The notes beneath the pieces were generated by a model. That model did not search any database, was not told the DNA's origin, and saw only the letters and a list, made by a program, of their open reading frames with translations. Made by a program: the position numbers and the translations under genes. A DNA stretch of 64,000 nt from Zootoca vivipara (taxonomy: Eukaryota): the NCBI RefSeq assembly GCF_963506605.1, contig NC_083284.1:17422001-17486000 (forward strand), in the 5' to 3' direction. This document shows positions 13,513-47,670 of the stretch, piece by piece; the first letter of the stretch is position 1; each line of letters begins with the position of its first letter.

Positions 13513-13605
13513 AAGCTCATACCTATGACAAACTTAGTTGGTCTCTAAGGTGCTACTGGAAGGATTTTTTTATTTTGTTTTGACTGCGTCAGACCAACAC
13601 GGCTA
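13513..13605 (+). mobile_element. PLE 3' terminal fragment (pLTR end plus tail)
   Basis: aagctcatacc...aacttagttggtctctaaggtgctactggaaggattttttt...cagaccaacacggcta aligns with 42847-42936. Confidence 0.85.
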
Positions 13606-35533: not shown

Positions 35534-37109
35534 AATATTTTTTAGGGTACTTTTTTTCCAAAAACATTAGTGCAGAAACAGAACGAAGTGGAATGATGGG
35601 TCAAAACTTGTGAAAGTCGCCCAGACTAGAAACTGACATATTCTTCCAGCACTATGTGCATATTTAGTTAGCTCAGAAATGCTTCTTTCCTCTTAGGTAA
35701 AACAACACAAAAATCTTAACCTGTATAGCAGCGATATTCAGTAGGTTAAGAAAAAGACTTTGAAATCGTTCTAGCAAGCTAGTGTTTTTGCTTCACCTGC
35801 CCATGGGGAATGATTTGCTTTCCAGAGTCAGCTTAGGTAGCAGTGGGAAATGACACGCAGGCAGTATTATGGAAAAATCTGTGTGCGCAGAACTTTATAA
35901 ATTTCAAAAGATTCCATTTAACAGAAGTAGCATTTCTGGCAGGCTGAAACTGACTTGCCTGAATACATTTCTAAAGCAACTTGCTTGCCTTTCTAACAGC
36001 AACAGTAACAACAAAAACTCATTTCCTTTCTTCTTAGGCCAAGCAGTTGTTGCTAATGTAGTTGGCAAACAGGTCCGTTATCTCAAAGTGCTGACTCCTC
36101 TGCTGTTTCTTGCTGGGCTGTGAAGTAATTTCCGTCAACAACTCGTCTGTGGGAAATAGTATGGGCTGTTTCATATAATCTTTGGGAGTGATGGGGCCTG
36201 CCTACTTAGGATTTAGTCTTTCGTTTTATTCTATTTTTTTGCAGACTTGGAAGAAATCAGGTGACTGGCAGATGGTATGGCTTACAAGAGCCAAGTAAAT
36301 TTGTCAGCTCTCCCTTTCCTCAAATCAAGGCCAATTGATTAGCATGGCAGCTTTGCAGCCTTTTTATTGGGCAAGCGTCAGCAAATCGGGCTATGGGGAT
36401 TGTCCTCTTTCCCATCCTCTAACTGGGTAATAACTCCCAACAGTCTTGACTCCAAACAGCTTTTCAAGCCCATGTCTGAATTACTGCTGCAATTTAAACC
36501 TGTGTGTGCAACTAAATCATTCTAAAAAACGAAAAGTAAGAAGATATTGAGCAGCTTAAGTATTTATGGCCCCCAGTTAAACTGGTGCTGGACACTGGGC
36601 AAAATAACCTACTTCCACAGGTAGTTGGATTCATACATCACTAGTCAAGTATGCAAACACTTTGTAAACTAATGGTACCAAGCTATGCATGGCTGCAGCC
36701 ATACTGGCAGTATGTATTCCCCACTTTTTTATTTATTCTGAAGAACATATAGTTCGAAGGAACATAGTGACTGTCCTATAACAGATAGAGCTGGTTGTCT
36801 GTCTAGGCCAGTGCTCTTTGCTCTAACTGGCAGCAGCTCTCCTGGGTCTCTTGTAGAGATCTAATCTTTTTTGTTGCTTGTGAACCTGGGACATTCAATA
36901 AGTAAAGTATATACTGTGTGGCTAACAGTAGTTCCTACCATTGACGCAATCGGTCCTAAGTGCCCTTTCAATCCCTATTCTTCAAGGCTAGTAAAACCTA
37001 GTAGAAGGGGATTGACTGGATAGTTTCAGGGAGTGTTTAATGCCCACCACCTTGAAAGAGAAAGCAGTTAGCCCCTCTTGGAAAAACCTTCCCTGGCTCA
37101 CCATGGATA

Positions 37110-37274
37110 GGTTGGATACCTCTCTTGGTTAGAACATGGTGCTGATAACACCAAGGTTGCAGGTTCAATCCCCGTATGGGACAGCTGCATATTCCTGCAT
37201 ATTCCTGCATTGCAGGGGGTTGGACTAGATGATCCGCAGGGCCCCTTCCAACTCTACAAATCTATGATTCTATG
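37110..37274 (+). mobile_element. tRNA-Ile-headed, CR1-tailed SINE (Squam2-like)
   Basis: ttggttagaacatggtgctgataacaccaaggttgcaggttcaatccccgtatggg resembles vertebrate tRNA-Ile; followed by the CR1 3' UTR gcagggggttggactagatga...ttccaactcta and an ATTCTATG tail. Confidence 0.8.
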
Positions 37275-37283
37275 GATCTAGAG

Positions 37284-37408
37284 CAAGTGCGGCCCTCCAG
37301 ATGTTTTGGTCTACAACTCCCATGATCCCTAGCTAACAGGACCAGTGGTCAGGGATGATGGGAATTGTAGTCCAAAACATCTGGAGGGCTGAAGTTTGGG
37401 GATGCCTG
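37284..37408. mobile_element. hAT-Charlie (URR1-like) MITE with a deletion inside the left TIR
   Basis: TSD ATCTAGAG at 37276-37283 and 37409-37416. Confidence 0.88.
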
Positions 37409-37454
37409 ATCTAGAGGTTTTAGAGAACTTAGAACCCAGTCTCTAATATGTGTC

Positions 37455-37670
37455 TCCTGTGTAAGGTGATTGAGAAGGTGATGGTCAGACAGCTGCAGAT
37501 ATACCTGAAGGAAGCTGATTATCTAGATCCATTCCAGCCTGGCTTCAAGCCCAGTTTGGAAACTGAAAACCCTCAGTCACCATGATTTAGGATATTTATC
37601 AGGAGAGACACAAGGGGCATGCAGCCCTATTGGTTCTTCTTAACCTCTCAGCAGCTTTCGACACCATTGC
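37455..37670 (+). mobile_element. L2 LINE RT fragment
   Basis: Remnant KVIEKVMVRQLQIYLKEADYLDPFQPGFKP and LVLLNLSAAFDT. Confidence 0.78.
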
Positions 37671-38103
37671 TTCTCATACCTGTGCCACATTGAGTGTCAT
37701 GGCATATTTTACAGTGCATTCCTGTACATGTCAGCTCAGCAATAAGTTACAAGGTTTTCAATGAAGCTTACACCCAGGTTAGTGTGCATATCTTCAGAAC
37801 CTTTATCTTATCCTTATAGCAGCCACGTAGGCTGATTGTATCAATAGACTCATTCTGACTTTTGGAATTCAGGTTTAGAGGGCATGACTCACCAATGGTC
37901 TACACACCATTTTTAGATTTGGATCTTCAATCCTTTTGTTTGCTCTTGACTTCTGTTGTCCTCTTCCTTATCATTGCTTTTTCATTCAGCTTTCATGGTA
38001 TTTTGTCCACATAAAGAATAACAGTTAGAGTAGCACAGAAACAGAAGACAGAAGGTTGTTGTTATTTACATGAACATGGATCTAATTGTCATGTTTAGGT
38101 GTA

Positions 38104-38321
38104 CAGTGGTACCTCGACTTATGAAGGCGATCTGTTCCGCGGCACTCTTCGGAAGTTGAAAACTTCAGAAGTTGAAGCGTCCATTTTGCGCATGCGCAAA
38201 GCGTGATTTTGCGCTTTGCGCATGCACAGAATGTGTGCGTTGTGAAAATACTTCCGGGTTAGCGGACTTCGGAAGTCAAAACCTTCAGAAGTCGAGGCAT
38301 TCGTAAGTCGAGGTACCACTG
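38104..38321. mobile_element. Tigger-like MITE
   Basis: CAGTGGTACCTCGACTTA...TAAGTCGAGGTACCACTG. Confidence 0.88.
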
Positions 38322-39007
38322 CTCCATGAATCAAATTGCCCTTACATTCACCTGTGGCAATTAAAAAGTCATTATTTGCTTGCTAAGAACAGTTGTGACT
38401 AGATTATTGTCCTTTACCCATTTTCCTAAAACCATCTTTATTAAGTTTTCAGGGCGAGAAAATGAACTTTAGCCAGTGGGGAAAGCTTATTCAAAACCTT
38501 TAGACGGAGTCATTAAAAATACCTCTATGGGGATTTTTGTTTATTAAAGCAGTAAGCAAGAATTTTAAAGAAAGTCAAAATAAGGGGAGGGCTGATTATT
38601 CATCCTTTGATTGAGGTGGATTATTGCAGTGTCCCAGTTCTCCTAAAGCACCTAGGAAAAATAAAGCAATTTAATCATTAGGACAGGGACTCAAAGTTCA
38701 TTATGATGATAATTCATTCCTGACAGGCATGCTGTGAGTTATTGAACTTGAGAAGTTTTAAGTCCATGGATGCAATTGCAAGAATCACCTCCAGGGCAAG
38801 TCCTACTACAAGTTGGGGGGGGGGGGTTACACTTATGTCCAAAGTCTGTTTTTCTGTGCAAGCAAACAAGCACTTATTTGTAGCGGCTGGACTGGTATGT
38901 GAGACAGAGCCATAATAACATCCTGCAAGCTGATAATCAAACCATTTCATCATGTTGTAATTGACTCCATGCAGACTTATAACTGCATTCGCCAGTGTTC
39001 ATTTGTT

Positions 39008-39017
39008 TGTGTGTGTA

Positions 39018-39073
<56 letters not shown>
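39008..39073. repeat. (GT)n(AT)n microsatellite ~60 bp from the PLE insertion site
   Basis: Direct reading. Confidence 0.95.
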
Positions 39074-39076
<3 letters not shown>

Positions 39077-39194
39077 GAGGATTCCTTTTGAGTGCAATTC
39101 TGTAACTTTACAAATAATGAAGTATTCCAGAGTTACTGTTACTTGGAAAAATTCCTTCAGTAGCACCTTAAAGACCAACTAAGTTTTTATTTTG

Positions 39195-39232
39195 GTATGA
39201 GCTTTCGTGTGCATGCACACTTCTTCAGATAC
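39195..39232 (-). ncRNA. Minimal type I hammerhead ribozyme motif (inverted arm copy)
   Basis: Exact reverse complement of 42819-42856. Confidence 0.88.
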
Positions 39233-39431
39233 AGTGAAATGGAAGTTTCCATTATGAATAATCAGCCCTTATGTAGAGAAGGGGTGGGGAGGGGTGGGGA
39301 TGGGGAGGGGGGATCACTCAGAAGGGTGGTGGAAATGGGTGATTGACTGACTGATAGCTGTTGATGACCGCAAACGACTGCAAATGGTTTTGCATGAAAA
39401 AGCAAGGGTTGAGATGGCTGAAGATCGCTTA

Positions 39432-40822
39432 TCATGTATAATGAGATAAGAACCCGATATCTCTGTTCAAACCAGGTCCCTCCATGGTTTTGAGCTTGGT
39501 GATAAGTTGCAATTCAGCAACTTCTCTTTCCAGTCTATTTCTGAAATTCTTTTGTAGTAAGACAGCTACTTTGAGATCTTGTATAGAATGTCCTGGGAGA
39601 TTGAAGTGTTCTCCTACTGGTTTTTCTGTCTTCTGGTTCCTGATGTCAGATTTATGTCCATTTATCCTTTGGCGTAGGGTTTGGCCTGTTTGTCCAATAT
39701 AGAGAGCTGAAGGGCACTGTTGGCATTTGATGGCATACACAATGTTAGAGGATGAGCAATTAAATAGTCCTGAGATGGTATGTTGGATGTTGTTGGGGCC
39801 AGTAATGGTGTTGTCTGGGTGTATGTGGCAGCAAAGTTGGCATCTGGGTTTATTGCAGGCTCTGGTACCAGTGTCCATGTTAAGTCTGGTGGTTGTATTC
39901 TTGTGGGTGAGGAGTTGTTTAAGATTGGGTGGCTGTCTGTAGGCAATGAAAGGTCTTCCTCCCAGAGCTTGAGAAAGGGAGCGGTCATTGTCCAGGAGAG
40001 GCTGTAGATCTCTGATGATGCGTTGTACTGTTTTAGCTTGGGAGCTGTATGTGATGACTAGTGGTGTTCTGTTATTTTCTTTTTTGGGTCTGTCTTGCAG
40101 CAGGTTCTCTCTAGGTATCTGTCTGGCTCTGTTGATCTGTTGTTTAACTTCATCAGGTGGATATTTTAGTTCTAAAAAGGTTTGCTGTAGATCTCTTAGG
40201 TGAGATTCTCTGTCTGTAGAGTTGGAACAGATGCGGTTGTAACGTAAGGCCTGGCTGTATACGATGGATTGTTTGGTATGTTTGGGATGGTAGCTAGAAG
40301 CATGTAGATATGTTTGTCGGTCAGTTGGTTTTCTGTATAAGGTGGTGTCTATACGTCCATCCTGTATTTTTATAGTAGTGTCCAAAAATGTATTTCTTGC
40401 ATAGATTGGTTCATTGTTAGGTTGATGGTGGGGTGAAAGTCATTGAATGTCTGGTGGAAGGTTTCCAGGGTCTGTTGTCCATGTGTCCAGATAATAAAAA
40501 TATCGTCAATGTATCGCAGGTACAGGAGAGGTTTGAGTGGGTAGGAGTTAAGGAAACGTTGTTCTAAATCTGCCATGAAGATGTTGGCATACTGTGGGGC
40601 CATGCGGGTGCCCATGGCTGTGCCGCTGATCTGGAGGAACAGGTCATCACCAAATTTGAAGTGGTTGTGGGTAAGGACAAAGTGGCAGAGTTTGGTAGCA
40701 AAGTCCGCTGTGGTTTTATCTGAAATGGTGTTCCTTATGGCTTGTAAACCATCATTGTGTGGGATGTTGGTATATAGAGATTCCACATCCATAGTGGCTA
40801 GTATAGTATTGTTAGGAAGATT
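39432..40822 (-). pseudogene. Inverted partial copy of the PLE ORF (RT C-terminal half plus GIY-YIG) with a 1-bp frameshift
   Basis: Minus ORFs 40370..40909 and 39432..40385 repeat the plus-strand protein exactly from NLPNNTILATMDVES to the stop. The break is an A5 run near 40384-40388, where the plus arm has T6. Confidence 0.93.
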
Positions 40823-42631
40823 ATAGACATTATAATTAAAGAGGCAGACAAGGGTGGAGCTGTCGTCATCATGAACAAAACTGATTACATCCAAGAGGCC
40901 CACAGACAACTTTCCAATACTGCCTTTTACATGAAATTGGACTCAGACCCCACACAAGCATACAAAAAAGAACTGAACAAGATTATTAAGGAGCTACCCC
41001 TACACATCCAAGAACAGATCCTCACAAACACACCAGCGGAACCTCGGCCAGGAACTTTCTATCTTCTACCCAAAATACACAAACCAGGAAACCCAGGACG
41101 CCCCATCATCTCAGGTATTGGCACCATTACAGTGGGTGTTTCCGGCTATATGGACTCTGTTCTGAAACCATATGCTATCAGTGCTCCCAGCTACGTACGT
41201 GACACCACAGATTTTCTGAGGAAAATACAATATTTGAACAATCTTCCTAACAATACTATACTAGCCACTATGGATGTGGAATCTCTATATACCAACATCC
41301 CACACAATGATGGTTTACAAGCCATAAGGAACACCATTTCAGATAAAACCACAGCGGACTTTGCTACCAAACTCTGCCACTTTGTCCTTACCCACAACCA
41401 CTTCAAATTTGGTGATGACCTGTTCCTCCAGATCAGCGGCACAGCCATGGGCACCCGCATGGCCCCACAGTATGCCAACATCTTCATGGCAGATTTAGAA
41501 CAACGTTTCCTTAACTCCTACCCACTCAAACCTCTCCTGTACCTGCGATACATTGACGATATTTTTATTATCTGGACACATGGACAACAGACCCTGGAAA
41601 CCTTCCACCAGACATTCAATGACTTTCACCCCACCATCAACCTAACAATGAACCAATCTATGCAAGAAATACATTTTTTGGACACTACTATAAAAATACA
41701 GGATGGACGTATAGACACCACCTTATACAGAAAACCAACTGACCGACAAACATATCTACATGCTTCTAGCTACCATCCCAAACATACCAAACAATCCATC
41801 GTATACAGCCAGGCCTTACGTTACAACCGCATCTGTTCCAACTCTACAGACAGAGAATCTCACCTAAGAGATCTACAGCAAACCTTTTTAGAACTAAAAT
41901 ATCCACCTGATGAAGTTAAACAACAGATCAACAGAGCCAGACAGATACCTAGAGAGAACCTGCTGCAAGACAGACCCAAAAAAGAAAATAACAGAACACC
42001 ACTAGTCATCACATACAGCTCCCAAGCTAAAACAGTACAACGCATCATCAGAGATCTACAGCCTCTCCTGGACAATGACCGCTCCCTTTCTCAAGCTCTG
42101 GGAGGAAGACCTTTCATTGCCTACAGACAGCCACCCAATCTTAAACAACTCCTCACCCACAAGAATACAACCACCAGACTTAACATGGACACTGGTACCA
42201 GAGCCTGCAATAAACCCAGATGCCAACTTTGCTGCCACATACACCCAGACAACACCATTACTGGCCCCAACAACATCCAACATACCATCTCAGGACTATT
42301 TAATTGCTCATCCTCTAACATTGTGTATGCCATCAAATGCCAACAGTGCCCTTCAGCTCTCTATATTGGACAAACAGGCCAAACCCTACGCCAAAGGATA
42401 AATGGACATAAATCTGACATCAGGAACCAGAAGACAGAAAAACCAGTAGGAGAACACTTCAATCTCCCAGGACATTCTATACAAGATCTCAAAGTAGCTG
42501 TCTTACTACAAAAGAATTTCAGAAATAGACTGGAAAGAGAAGTTGCTGAATTGCAACTTATCACCAAGCTCAAAACCATGGAGGGACCTGGTTTGAACAG
42601 AGATATCGGGTTCTTATCTCATTATACATGA
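40823..42631 (+). CDS. PLE reverse transcriptase / GIY-YIG endonuclease polyprotein, 5'-truncated but uninterrupted (the ATG at 40871 is internal)
   Basis: Frame open from 40823: IDIIIKEADKGGAVVIMN (PLE DKG motif), FYLLPKIHKPGNPGRPIIS, ATMDVESLYTNIP, QISGTAMGTRMAPQYANIFM, YLRYIDD (YIDD at 41549-41560), C-x4-C-x2-C linker CNKPRCQLC (Neptune-type), and NIVYAIKCQQC...LYIGQT...R..H...HF...E (GIY-YIG with CCHH). Confidence 0.95.
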   Translation: MDIIIKEADKGGAVVIMNKTDYIQEAHRQLSNTAFYMKLDSDPTQAYKKELNKIIKELPLHIQEQILTNTPAEPRPGTFYLLPKIHKPGNPGRPIISGIGTITVGVSGYMDSVLKPYAISAPSYVRDTTDFLRKIQYLNNLPNNTILATMDVESLYTNIPHNDGLQAIRNTISDKTTADFATKLCHFVLTHNHFKFGDDLFLQISGTAMGTRMAPQYANIFMADLEQRFLNSYPLKPLLYLRYIDDIFIIWTHGQQTLETFHQTFNDFHPTINLTMNQSMQEIHFLDTTIKIQDGRIDTTLYRKPTDRQTYLHASSYHPKHTKQSIVYSQALRYNRICSNSTDRESHLRDLQQTFLELKYPPDEVKQQINRARQIPRENLLQDRPKKENNRTPLVITYSSQAKTVQRIIRDLQPLLDNDRSLSQALGGRPFIAYRQPPNLKQLLTHKNTTTRLNMDTGTRACNKPRCQLCCHIHPDNTITGPNNIQHTISGLFNCSSSNIVYAIKCQQCPSALYIGQTGQTLRQRINGHKSDIRNQKTEKPVGEHFNLPGHSIQDLKVAVLLQKNFRNRLEREVAELQLITKLKTMEGPGLNRDIGFLSHYT

Positions 42632-42818
42632 TAAGCGATCTTCAGCCATCTCAACCCTTGCTTTTTCATGCAAAACCATTTGCAGTCGTTTGCGGTCATC
42701 AACAGCTATCAGTCAGTCAATCACCCATTTCCACCACCCTTCTGAGTGATCCCCCCTCCCCATCCCCACCCCTCCCCACCCCTTCTCTACATAAGTGCCT
42801 GGAAACTTCCATTTCACT

Positions 42819-42856
42819 GTATCTGAAGAAGTGTGCATGCACACGAAAGCTCATAC
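42819..42856 (+). ncRNA. Minimal type I hammerhead ribozyme motif in the PLE pseudo-LTR
   Basis: GUAU-CUGAAGA-A-GUGUGCAUGCACAC-GAAA-GC-UC^AUAC. Core boxes CUGANGA and GAAA, palindromic stem II, loopless palindromic stem III (AGCU), stem I GUAU/AUAC, predicted cut after CUC (42852). PLE pLTRs are known to carry such minimal hammerheads. Confidence 0.88.
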
Positions 42857-43159
42857 CAAAATAAAAACTTAGTTGGTCTTTAAGGTGCTACTGAAGGAAT
42901 TTTTTTATTTTACTTCGATCCAGACCAACACGGCTACCTACCTGTAACCTGTTACTTGGAAGACACTGTCAGAGAAGTGTACTGTCATCATGGTCATCTT
43001 CACTGACCCCCTCACAGAGGTGAAGCTGCTATTTGAAAAAAAGAAGAAGTAGCAGCTGCTGCCAGTTTGAGCCTGGAAGGGCAGCCATAGGGGTGGGTGC
43101 AAAGCTTGGTTCAGATTGCATTTTAATGCAAAACTTTCTGATTTTTTTTTAAAAAATAT

Positions 43160-43365
43160 TACTTATTGTTTGTATACCACTCTTCATCCAAAGATCACAG
43201 GGCAGTTCACAACATAAAAATACAAAATGAGGACACAAAATACATAATAAAAACAAGAACAAGAACAAACATTGCTCCCACTAACACATTTAAAAGAACA
43301 TAGAATGTTAATCATCCAAAGGCCTGGTTCAAGAGAAACATTTTTGCCTGGTGCCTAAAGATATG
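43160..43365 (-). repeat. L2-type 3' UTR fragment
   Basis: ttgtataccactcttcatccaaagatcacagggcagttcacaac ... ttttgcctggtgcctaaa. Confidence 0.55.
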
Positions 43366-44639
43366 AAATGCATCCTTCCTGAAACAACATGAGAACTAAA
43401 ATGCAGCTATTTTAAATTCATGCTGCTTTGAATTTTGTGATGTTCTCCAACCAGATAATGTGTACAGAAATGTGTATATTAAGAGTACATAAAAACAACA
43501 TAGAAAAATGCATCATGTTAGGGGAAATTACTTGCAAAATGTATATGTTAGGCAAAACTGCATCTATGTGTATAGTCTGGAAAATGCAGAGTAAAATGCT
43601 GATAAATACTGGGAAGAAGATTAATTGTTAAACCACTCTGGGAATTGTAGGTCAGTGAGGAGAATAGGGGTCTCCTAACAACTCTCAGCACCCTTAACAA
43701 ACTATAGTTCCCTAGATTCTTTGGGGTAAGTCATGACTCTCAAACTGGTATTAAAACACTTTAAATGTATGGTGTGCTTGTACCCTAGGAAAGATTTTTC
43801 AGTAGCTCCTTCTAGTCATTCATGTTTGATGAAATGAATGCACAATGTTGGGAACATGATGTCGGCAGGCACTGTCTCTTACCTACACACACGTTCATTA
43901 GAATCTGTAGACAGCTCTCACTATGTATAGTTAGCATGAGTAAAATTTGGGTGCCAATCCCATGGAAATTCTAATTTAACCTAAAGGTCTGTGGTGCCAT
44001 CTTGTAGTTGAACGTGATGGCCCGCCCATCAACCTCACTTGCTGAATACACACAGCTTAGATTCTTAAAAGCTCTTTGGAGGTTTCCATGTTCATAGTTC
44101 AAAAGAGTAAGCAGATCACTTTCTGGACTGTGAAGAAAATTCCTGTCACTGTGTAAAATTGTATCATTATGGTATTATGGAGTTAAGGTCACCGAGGGAG
44201 AAAAGCATTGCCACACTCCATTTATTGAAATAGCCCTCATTGGTACAGAAGTCACAAAATGAGAACCACAAGGGTATGCTCTTTAGCACCATGACTGTAT
44301 GAATTCTAAGTCGGTAACACTTTGGCTTTTGCATGCTAATTCTAAGTTACTGTGGGCCAAACTGATCATCATATAAAATATATATACAGTATGCACAGGT
44401 TTTTTTGGGGGGGGGGAATGGGGCAGAGTTTTAAAGTGCAAATTGCATCAATAGAGAAGGGTTGCCTCTGACAGTTATTGGGATCACAGCAGGCATAGGG
44501 GGGGGGGGGAAACGTAATCCTTTCATTTCTGAAGGAAATATGTCTTCTGCTATTGGCTTTTGGAAGGAAATCTTCCACTGGCATCACTATAGGACTTTCT
44601 CCCAATGCAAATAATAGCACTTTGCAAGTAACACTGAAT

Positions 44640-44642
<3 letters not shown>

Positions 44643-44716
<74 letters not shown>
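44643..44716. repeat. (GT)n(GA)n microsatellite
   Basis: Direct reading. Confidence 0.97.
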
Positions 44717-44718
<2 letters not shown>

Positions 44719-45688
44719 TGTCAATTATTTATGAATTGTTTTTGTAACAGAAATAAAAAAAAACCTGCACACCAGTCACCTTTCTGCTCCTTTCCCAGGC
44801 CTTAGTTTAATTCTACAAATCCCCTCCTTTACTTTATTTCTTCTATTCCCCCAAGAAATCTAACTAATATCATTGTCCTCAGATGGTGTGTGCAGAATGC
44901 ATGCCGTGGGGGTTGAATCTATATTTCAAGCTTCTCCTTCTTGATGAAGCCACAGAGTAAGATTCGCTGAACACAAGAGTGATTTGTTACGCTTGTGAAT
45001 AGTTGGTCTGCTTTACAAATGAGGTAGCTTCTCAGTAGGTGTGTGTTCTTGTTGTGGCTATGTAATTATCAAACCTGAAGCAGGAAATCAGAATCCACAT
45101 TGTGCCTCCTTAGAGACAACTGTACTAGAGTAAGCACAGGATGATGGGGAGGGAGGCGAGTAAAAGGGAGAAAGGCGTGGAGACAGGAGGCTCTCTCCTT
45201 TAAATGTGCTGCCCTGAAACAGTAGTTTCAATGGCTAATCTTGGGAAGTAAGACAAGTGTGGAATTGAGACCATAATTATATAATCATAGCAGGAACGTT
45301 ATAGCATGAAAATGGGGAATGCCTCTGGTATTCCCCCACTCAACCCCACACTAAAGCACCATGTTGTGGGGCTTTGCATTGCCTAATGACAATGGCAGGT
45401 GGCCGTCTTCCTGGGGACACCACAGCCAAGACACCCTCACTTAGTGGTGTGCCTCTTCATTGACAGAGGCAAGCGGAGATGTGACATGCCTCTTCTCAGC
45501 ACCACCAACAGCAGGGGATTAGGACTGCCGTCTTATTCAGGTTTTCTTTTAATACTCTTTTAACAGTTTTGATTGTATGTTCCTGCTGCGCTGAATTTGT
45601 ATATTTTACAGCTGTAAAAAATGGAAAGAAAATCCATATACTGCCCAGATAACTTATTTGTAATGGGCAGTATAAGAATGCTGATTAT

Positions 45689-45770
45689 CAGTGCTTTTAA
45701 CCAGTGCTTTTCTTCTAGAAAAGGGGTGCTGGTACAGTGTACCTTTGAGTAGCCTCAGTAAAAAGCACTG
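45689..45770. mobile_element. hAT MITE (CAGTGCTTTT-type TIR)
   Basis: CAGTGCTTTT...AAAAGCACTG; TSD CTGATTAT / CTGATTGT. Confidence 0.8.
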
Positions 45771-45796
45771 CTGATTGTTATTATCATTATCATTAG

Positions 45797-46128
45797 CAGG
45801 GGCGGAGGAAGGGCTGTGGTGGGTGCGGTCCGCCCAGTGTGTCACCACTGAGGGGGGTGACAAAATGCTGGGCAGCACTCACCACGGGGCCTGCAGTGCG
45901 CCTGGGCCACGCATCTCTCCTGGGAGTGGCACGGTGGCTCAGGCGCACACAGCCTCCACGCAGCCCCAAACAGTCCACCTGCTGCCTCCCCCCCCCAGCT
46001 GTAGGGTGAGTGGGAGGAGGCAGGCATACTCCGGAGGCCCCGCGGTGCGCCCCACCCCTATGGTTGGCTCTCCCCACCCTTGACCCGCCCCTATGGGCGG
46101 CTCGCCCGAGGGGTTTCCTCCGCCGCTT
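45797..46128. mobile_element. GC-rich non-autonomous DNA transposon (probably hAT)
   Basis: CAGGGGCGGAGGAA...TTCCTCCGCCGCT inverted ends; imperfect 8-bp flanks ATCATTAG / GTCATTAC. Confidence 0.65.
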
Positions 46129-47670
46129 GTCATTACCATTTAACCATTTTGAAATAAATTCTTAAACGTTGATTTTCCCTTGCTATTCTTGAAACAGTGC
46201 CATTAGCAAGGCATTGCAATCTCTTCTGATTTGTTCTTCTAGTAAGTCACTCCAGAGGTTCATGGGAGGACAAACTTTTTTTTTTCCTGTTGAGGGTCAC
46301 ATTCCCTTGCTCCATAATCTCTGAAGGCCCACACATGGCAGGAAGAGTGAAAGCCAGTGGTGGTGGAGGCAGAATTAAAATGGTCAGGATCTCTCTCTCC
46401 CCTTCTCTCCCACCACCTAAAAATACAAATCCTGCTGTTTCTAGCAACTAGTATGTTCACCAGTTCTAGAGAGAGGGAGAATTTTTTTTCTTTGCTTTAT
46501 CCACTTTCTCCATACTATGCATAATTTTATACATTTCCGCCTCTTGCTTGCCTTTTCTCTAAAGTCCCAAATGTTACATCTCTTTCTAAATACCTCCTTC
46601 TAGTATGGTTCAGTTTAGTGCACTGTCCTAGACCTGAACCGCTTCCTCATCCTTCTTCTCTATAAGTGTATGGTGGCCAAAGCTTTTGGCACAATAAAAA
46701 GTAAAAATTCACCCTTTATATCCTTTCCAGTTCATTAACAGAGGAAATAATGTCATTTAAGTGAAGTACTTCTCATTATGTTAAAAGTCACTGTTTTGTT
46801 ACTAGATCATAACATATAATAGAAGGTCAATATCCACAGTGTTGCGCAGAATCTGTGCTAATGGAGTAACATAATTAAAATTAATTGAGTATGATTCCAC
46901 CTATTAAATGCATTAAGATTGATGTGAGTTATTTTCCCTGGCTGCTTTTTGTTAAGGTCCTGCATTGCTCAGAATGCCACCTCCTCTTGCTCTGTTATTG
47001 ATAGACAAAAACCAAATTAGGATAGAATTGTTCAAAGGATTAAGGGAGTAAATGGATTTAACCACATCATCAAAGTCCCTTGTTGAACACAAGCTGGCTT
47101 TTACAAATGCCCTCCTTTCTCCCATATACTGATGATGGGGAATTCATGATAAGGTCTCTTTTAGATGTTCCCCACACTGGCACACCTGGAGAACTCCAGG
47201 GTCCCCATTGCTGCTGTATGAGTTGGGTTCACAACAGGTGTATAACAAAGCTGTGGTGTAGCCACTGAAAGTACTTTTTAACATCTTCTCCCCATGCTAG
47301 TCAAGTAGCTGGAGATCTTGCTGAGTTTTCTACTGAAAGGCCAATGAATCATTAGTGCCACAGGAGAGAGTTTTAATAGCCTTTGATTAATCTGTAATCT
47401 TACCACCGCTGCAATATCTTTGGTAATGGAATTTTCAATTAGATTGTTATTTGAAACACAATTCATTTTACCTTCCTTTTAAAACAAAAAAGTGCTCTGT
47501 GCACAGTTATTTTGTCATTAGGTAATGTTTGGTTCAGAGATAGCAGAAGCCTCAGAATCAACATCTTTTTTCAGTGTTGGCAAAATGCAACTTTCCCCTT
47601 TACCCACCACTTATGTCTTGCTAGGCAAATAGAACTACAGTATCACCACTCTTGCTAAGATTAGCTTATC

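Follow-up and report, generated by a model that had tools for sequence, protein, structure and literature searches.

A minimal hammerhead ribozyme motif in a young, Neptune-like Penelope-like element of Zootoca vivipara, doubled by one truncated head-to-head insertion

Introduction

Minimal hammerhead ribozymes (min-HHRs) were defined as a class by Cervera and De la Pena in 2014 (PMC4209133), who reported inactive monomers and weakly active dimers. Their paper also notes min-HHR pairs on opposite strands, and its Fig S4A depicts a 5'-truncated Penelope-like element (PLE) whose opposite strand bears another min-HHR. For the Poseidon element of Anolis carolinensis (PAc), Frangieh et al. (2024; PMC11167929) report that ribozyme-dead mutants insert normally and that reverse transcription starts internally at two sites. 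Insertions of EN+ PLEs are described as having an inverted, 5'-truncated copy at the 5' end, a tail at one end and a target-site duplication (TSD) around the whole unit (Arkhipova et al. 2013, PMC3846280; Craig et al. 2021, PMC8557442), and inverted copies and tails are also reported for Naiads, which lack hammerheads (PMC8557442). In the same work, a CX2-5CxxC linker between the reverse transcriptase (RT) and EN domains marks Neptune and Nematis.

The locus described here lies in a 64-kb stretch of Zootoca vivipara DNA, referred to below as the window, and resembles these systems closely. As in other EN+ PLE insertions, an inverted truncated copy, a tail at one end and an enclosing TSD are all present; unlike those in PMC3846280 and PMC8557442, its arms are kilobases long and nearly identical, which makes an arm-to-arm comparison possible. 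The family shares with PAc (PMC11167929) a tandem pLTR-ORF layout, an apparently uncut RNA template, the absence of RNA-seq ends at the cut site, and a spacing of about 35-40 nt, corresponding to the tail, between two insertion ends that both lie downstream of the ribozyme. In contrast to PAc, whose ORF starts inside stem II, the first ATG here lies ~104 nt past the cut site, and the window element has the cysteine linker of Neptune and Nematis. Neither a 2026 retrozyme preprint nor PMC6155905, as far as their content bears on this locus, changes the reading presented below.

Results

The hammerhead motif

The initial annotation had placed a min-HHR on the forward strand with a mirror copy on the reverse strand; every structural feature it listed is present, the mirror copy is identical, and its assignment to a PLE pLTR is borne out by the consensus fit and by the position of the motif. 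The elements of the motif, all read from the sequence, are as follows.

42819..42856, + strand: min-HHR motif (minimal type I hammerhead), 38 nt, with a predicted cut between 42852 and 42853; fits the consensus of PMC4209133 Fig S3
39195..39232, - strand: identical mirror min-HHR in the inverted arm, from sequence comparison
42819-22 / 42853-56, + strand: stem I, 4 bp, GUAU/AUAC
42823-29, + strand: core CUGAAGA
42830, + strand: extra A before stem II
42831-44, + strand: stem II, a 14-nt palindrome with closing pair G42831-C42844 (G10.1-C11.1)
42845-48, + strand: GAAA
42848-51, + strand: loopless stem III, AGCU
42852, + strand: C17, the cut site (cut 42852/42853)

The motif has the core CUGANGA...GAAA...UH, no loop III, palindromic positions 15.2/16.2 and a helix I within the 4-5 bp of the class, and it is located in a PLE pLTR, of which two copies flank full units. 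It follows the consensus of PMC4209133 throughout, from the U-rich lead, 4-bp helix I, CUGANGAH, G10.1-C11.1 and GAAA to the palindromic loopless stem III and the AU-rich trail. Its sequence is nevertheless absent from the 56 motifs aligned there, among which a palindromic loop II is rare. The closest of them, from the painted turtle, has the same core and stem III and differs by two compensatory pair changes, one in stem I and one in stem II (compared by eye).

A general min-HHR descriptor matched exactly twice in the window, at 42819-42856(+) and 39195-39232(-), compared with a mean of 0.01 matches in 200 dinucleotide shuffles, only 2 of which gave any match. The two matches represent one insertion event rather than two, because a 13-nt TSD encloses the whole inverted unit. 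The folding energy of the monomer is unremarkable (z -0.44). When the monomer folds, stem II forms 5 bp capped by the tetraloop CAUG, and it reads as a perfect palindrome because that tetraloop is itself self-complementary. The covariance-model search that the initial annotation had proposed gave no Rfam hammerhead among 19 matches at E<=10 across 36000-47000, which is unsurprising because the motif lacks helix III.

A single head-to-head insertion

The two motifs belong to one truncated, head-to-head PLE, whose parts are listed below.

40825..42949, + strand: sense arm, a 5'-truncated PLE copy with 99.95% identity to the full-length tandem unit, ending 97 nt past the cut site (long tail)
39147..40822, - strand: inverted arm, a shorter 5'-truncated PLE copy with 99.05% identity to the full-length unit, ending 52 nt past the cut site in an A/T run without a tail; 1-nt deletion near 40385
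40823..40824, no strand: head-to-head junction with 2 extra bases between the arms, from arm alignment
40825..42631, + strand: C-terminal ~600 aa of a 901-aa ORF, with RT (Pfam RVT_1, E 1.6e-12), CX4CxxC linker and GIY-YIG (E 4.9e-05); ~300 N-terminal aa absent
42788..42818, + strand: TATA-like box (42788-94) and initiator-like TCACT (42814-18), a likely pLTR promoter with a predicted start near 42816, from the sequence, copy starts and the layout given in PMC3846280
42910..42949, + strand: ~40-nt 'tail' extension, in the sense arm only
39136..39148, + strand: left copy of the 13-nt TSD, edges ambiguous by 1-2 nt
42949..42961, + strand: right copy of the 13-nt TSD

By its 5' truncation, the locus has lost the element's upstream promoter together with the ~300 N-terminal residues. 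The single ORF encodes RT followed by a C-terminal GIY-YIG domain, and the cysteine linker takes the form CX4CxxC, within the range that defines Neptune and Nematis. We therefore regard the element as a young, probably Neptune-like PLE, an assignment drawn from this linker and from vertebrate distribution. A PDB sequence search with the element ORF gave 0 matches. An identity as a non-LTR retrozyme was considered for the locus and rejected, since the locus is coding and inverted and does not consist of short non-coding tandem units.

Further features were observed in and around the insertion. In the inverted arm, ~12 nt are inserted between the TATA-like box and the motif (39248-39268), and 15 nt of this segment match host DNA ~550 nt to the left of the element (38589-38603), resembling a templated repair insertion. 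The window also holds two older, decayed stubs of the same PLE family, at 13513-13605 (+) and 60251-60420, neither with an intact motif; the latter is itself a small head-to-head pair. To the left of the insertion lie two small MITE-like inverted-repeat elements (37285-37396 and 38104-38321), the first of which gave sub-threshold matches to miRNA families.

The family in the genome

A 35-nt motif pattern has 17,000 exact matches genome-wide and its reversed control has 0; for comparison, 9,000 motifs were reported for Xenopus (PMC4209133). With a 100-aa query from the ORF, 150 places were found at 100% identity among the matches listed, many of them within 925-aa stop-to-stop frames. All seven of the source loci fetched are head-to-tail tandems with 2-3 same-strand motifs spaced 3,030 nt apart, and the 3,030-nt source unit carries the 901-aa ORF.

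These tandems bear directly on how a dimer could arise. As the initial annotation had noted, no transcript of the window locus holds two sense hammerheads, there being one motif per strand; its further step, that cleavage would need an intermolecular dimer, is not supported, the locus being a dead truncated copy. Tandem loci with at least two sense motifs supply the protein-coding RNAs, and therefore a dimer could form in cis. As a separate observation, one locus (L032:1936-4207; C1:2777825-2779653) contains four head-to-tail units of 598 nt, every one of which includes an intact motif and the 3' end of the element; this retrozyme-like array could form cis dimers.

Copy starts point to the position of the promoter. 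Among 63 exact copies, 23 start within 10 nt upstream of core C3 and only 4 in the next 29 nt; for this count, L001 was left out for its internal deletion, and L004, which is full-length upstream, was classed as long together with three older-subfamily copies. Combined with the promoter-like sequence, in which a TATA box stands ~20 nt before TCACT as in rotifer PLEs (PMC3846280), these starts suggest that transcription of the element likely begins ~3 nt before stem I.

The conservation across family copies on which the initial annotation had staked its ribozyme is found, the motif being kept while its flanks diverge. In an older subfamily picked by a downstream anchor, the full motif is present in 15 of 30 copies, 5 being identical and the remainder carrying scattered changes. 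In reads of other organisms, contig depth peaks on the motif and falls ~20-fold just 3' of it in two of four runs. All catalytic core positions are kept, N7 being the core position that varies. As for covariation, none of 30 stem I variants within the genome is compensatory and none was seen in the runs from other organisms; two compensatory pairs were noted, by eye, against the one turtle motif. Variants of loop II (261) and stem I (274) were considered as covarying subfamilies and rejected, as they look like single-copy decay. A candidate second min-HHR family (L146-L175, e.g. L150:1501-1533) was also rejected. This look-alike lies in frame in the 5' part of a many-copy LINE, which we take to be RTE/BovB-like from its AP-endonuclease-like protein, and its stem I closes with a G.G pair; it is probably a chance match.

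Insertion ends and the predicted cut site

We compared the ends of 19 inverted pairs, comprising the window pair, 13 long pairs that were selected by eye among the 150 places and hence do not form a random sample, and 5 pairs from other loci. All 19 combine a short end, 52-66 nt past the cut site, with a long one at 94-105 nt, so that neither arm has lost any of the motif and each continues for 52-105 nt after the cut. Flanking repeats of 12-16 nt that resemble TSDs are present in 13 of 14 inverted pairs, the fourteenth lying within a simple repeat. Likewise, 62 of 63 exact copies, preselected for 5 nt past the cut, carry sequence for ~40 nt or more beyond it.

We counted 108 copies that begin at the cut site, whereas control positions 4 and 8 nt upstream gave 54 and 71; this 1.5-2-fold excess leaves room for a small cut fraction. 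Of 20 such starts inspected by eye, however, 14 join the element to its own sequence in inverted or duplicated form, at a point where microhomology is supplied by stem I complementarity. Cut RNA could account for about 1% of copies at most. Judged by its genomic copies, then, the element is copied from RNA that is uncut at the motif, and a role for the ribozyme in making insertion ends or mirror-image insertions is unlikely.

Raw RNA reads from three runs of the same species (~6/100 of each) gave no pile of read starts or ends at the cut site, standard RNA-seq being poor at capturing 5'-OH and cyclic-phosphate ends. In these runs, motif reads occur on both strands, and 62-94% run on into unlike sequence, i.e. 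they belong to host transcripts. Many intact motifs are thus transcribed as passengers in host RNA. One example is L096:6594-6725 (X21-X23 reads): host RNA contains many short stubs with the motif, in both orientations, and the start of the ORF has near-zero depth.

Comparison of paired arms

The arms of a pair tend to resemble each other in sequence and in extent. In 12 of 19 pairs, including that of the window, the two arms have a variant in common that no other sampled long arm carries, except that the variant of L039 also occurs in L042. In 11 of 14 long pairs, no more than 30 nt separate the 5' truncations of the two arms; permutation yields 1.4 such pairs on average, and 0/100,000 permutations reach 11. 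Junction overlaps of 2-4 nt are found in 10 of 14 pairs. Variants confined to one arm occur in 7 of 19 pairs, and in 2 of 19 (L106 and L108) the arms disagree at a site segregating among other copies. In six of the 19 pairs (L104, L105, L108, L111, L045 and L011), no nesting of at least 15 nt is seen in either direction.

That paired arms share private variants and often stop together points to a single template source on which priming occurred twice, most simply one RNA primed at staggered sites by both nicked target strands. The shared variants could alternatively reflect gene conversion between arms, assembly polishing or two RNAs of one locus. Literature searches, whose coverage left out most subscription journals, returned no published arm-by-arm comparison, and likewise nothing relevant on PLE twin-priming, a head-to-head mechanism or PLE structure.

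Palindromic stem II and dimer energetics

Nearest-neighbour energies, which contain no tertiary terms, give -28.0 kcal/mol for a 14-bp stem II duplex versus -11.1 kcal/mol for the catalytic stem III dimer; the stem II duplex is predicted to gain 17 kcal/mol over two monomers. The predicted stem II-swapped fold leaves stem III unformed. Such a duplex would be non-catalytic, and two copies may be trapped in an inactive state. Judging from known hammerhead geometry, joining two cores by both helices at once looks impossible if the helices stack in line. Dimer cleavage of PLE hammerheads has reportedly also been described by Lunse et al., going by the title and a review's summary of that work.

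The palindrome is retained across subfamilies and in other organisms while the flanks drift. A strictly palindromic loop II was seen, by eye, in about 1 of the 56 min-HHRs published, and it is missing from the closest of these, that of the turtle. Separately, stem II stands out as a frequent site of the central junction in short head-to-head insertions: of the copies truncated inside the motif, ~19/100 listed fold back exactly on the palindrome (by eye, both arms counted).

Discussion

Our preferred explanation, to which we give a probability of roughly 70%, is that the motif is the min-HHR of a Neptune-like PLE, doubled in the window by one truncated head-to-head insertion copied from uncut RNA; it is likely both that the ribozyme pairs in cis within tandem transcripts and that it takes no part in making insertion ends. 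Transcription would start ~3 nt upstream of the motif and read into the next unit, yielding one RNA with at least two sense motifs. Held together by AGCU, these could form a slowly cutting double hammerhead, perhaps aided by the element's protein, and cutting would trim the RNA at a step separate from insertion. The endonuclease would nick both target strands about 13 nt apart. Each target DNA end would then prime RT at an internal site of a shared template source; in the simplest case, a protein dimer would read a single RNA twice. Head-to-head joining of the two truncated cDNAs would follow. In the window, a transcript running through both arms would be expected, from their identity, to form a ~1.67-kb hairpin masking the motif.

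The alternatives differ from this reading in what they ask of the ribozyme. The initial annotation had suggested an intermolecular route to the head-to-head insertion: a double hammerhead assembled from two RNAs would cleave, and the two 3' ends so produced would be delivered to a single cut in the target. The premise that the class favours dimers is sound, since min-HHRs cleave weakly as dimers and not as monomers, the loopless stem III requiring a partner (PMC4209133); the window locus has one sense motif per strand, and the element's 3' end is present on both arms. The proposed delivery, however, conflicts with arms that keep the whole motif and end 52-66 or 94-105 nt beyond the cut, the two ends differing in every pair. 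Tandem sources also provide two motifs in cis, ribozyme-dead Poseidon RNA inserts normally (PMC11167929), and the same inverted layout is reported for Naiads without hammerheads (PMC8557442), which together make this scheme highly improbable. At the opposite extreme, the motif might never cut in vivo, being a passenger or being kept for a non-cleaving job such as a 5'-end RNA fold for protein binding or the control of promoter or translation. Genomic copies and reads hold no trace of cut RNA, anole RNA-seq gave the same negative (PMC11167929), non-cleavage roles are allowed for by Cervera and De la Pena (PMC4209133), and Craig et al. suggest that hammerheads may parasitise PLEs (PMC8557442). 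Yet the catalytic core is kept at all positions but the varying N7, two base pairs covary against the turtle motif, and other PLE min-HHRs cleave as dimers or with protein (PMC4209133, PMC11167929), so that we judge a wholly non-cleaving motif distinctly unlikely.

Other alternatives concern how the second arm is written. Under self-priming, it would arise by fold-back of the first cDNA or, as proposed in PMC3846280, on an antisense template, with the ribozyme a bystander. The 2-4 nt junction overlaps together with near-equal truncations, the private variants common to both arms, and the short copies folded back exactly on stem II speak for it. Simple fold-back would nest the arms, though, and in 6 of 19 pairs neither is nested; moreover, the anole protein starts internally when it extends the two target strands (PMC11167929). 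Self-priming is the strongest of the alternatives and still unlikely. A further possibility is that two uncut transcripts of one locus pair through the stem II palindrome, in the manner of retroviral dimerisation, and that a dimeric RT reads both in step from two staggered internal starts, one RNA per arm. The predicted 17 kcal/mol gain, the retention of stem II amid drifting flanks, the predicted dimer of the anole Poseidon protein (PMC11167929), the private variants that RNAs of the same locus would have in common, and the two pairs whose arms disagree at a segregating site are all consistent with it. Set against these are the rarity of a strictly palindromic loop II, missing from the turtle motif, the occurrence of inverted insertions in PLEs generally, hammerhead-free ones included (PMC8557442, PMC3846280), and the alternative account of the palindrome as a 5-bp stem with a self-complementary tetraloop; we consider such pairing improbable.

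Significance

The ribozyme itself is ordinary: the literature has described the min-HHR class, its need for dimers and truncated PLEs with motifs on opposite strands since 2014, and cleavage here is predicted. If the improbable pairing through stem II were nevertheless true, the ribozyme fold would be a packaging device rather than a knife, and both arms would be written at once. The value of the family lies in its being a very young PLE of 17,000 copies with intact tandem sources, which offers countable footprints of PLE insertion: a short and a long end in each pair, nearly equal arms that share private variants, templates left uncut, and copies whose 5' ends fall at the likely start site. 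These footprints narrow the models for head-to-head insertion, and whether priming uses one RNA or two becomes directly testable.
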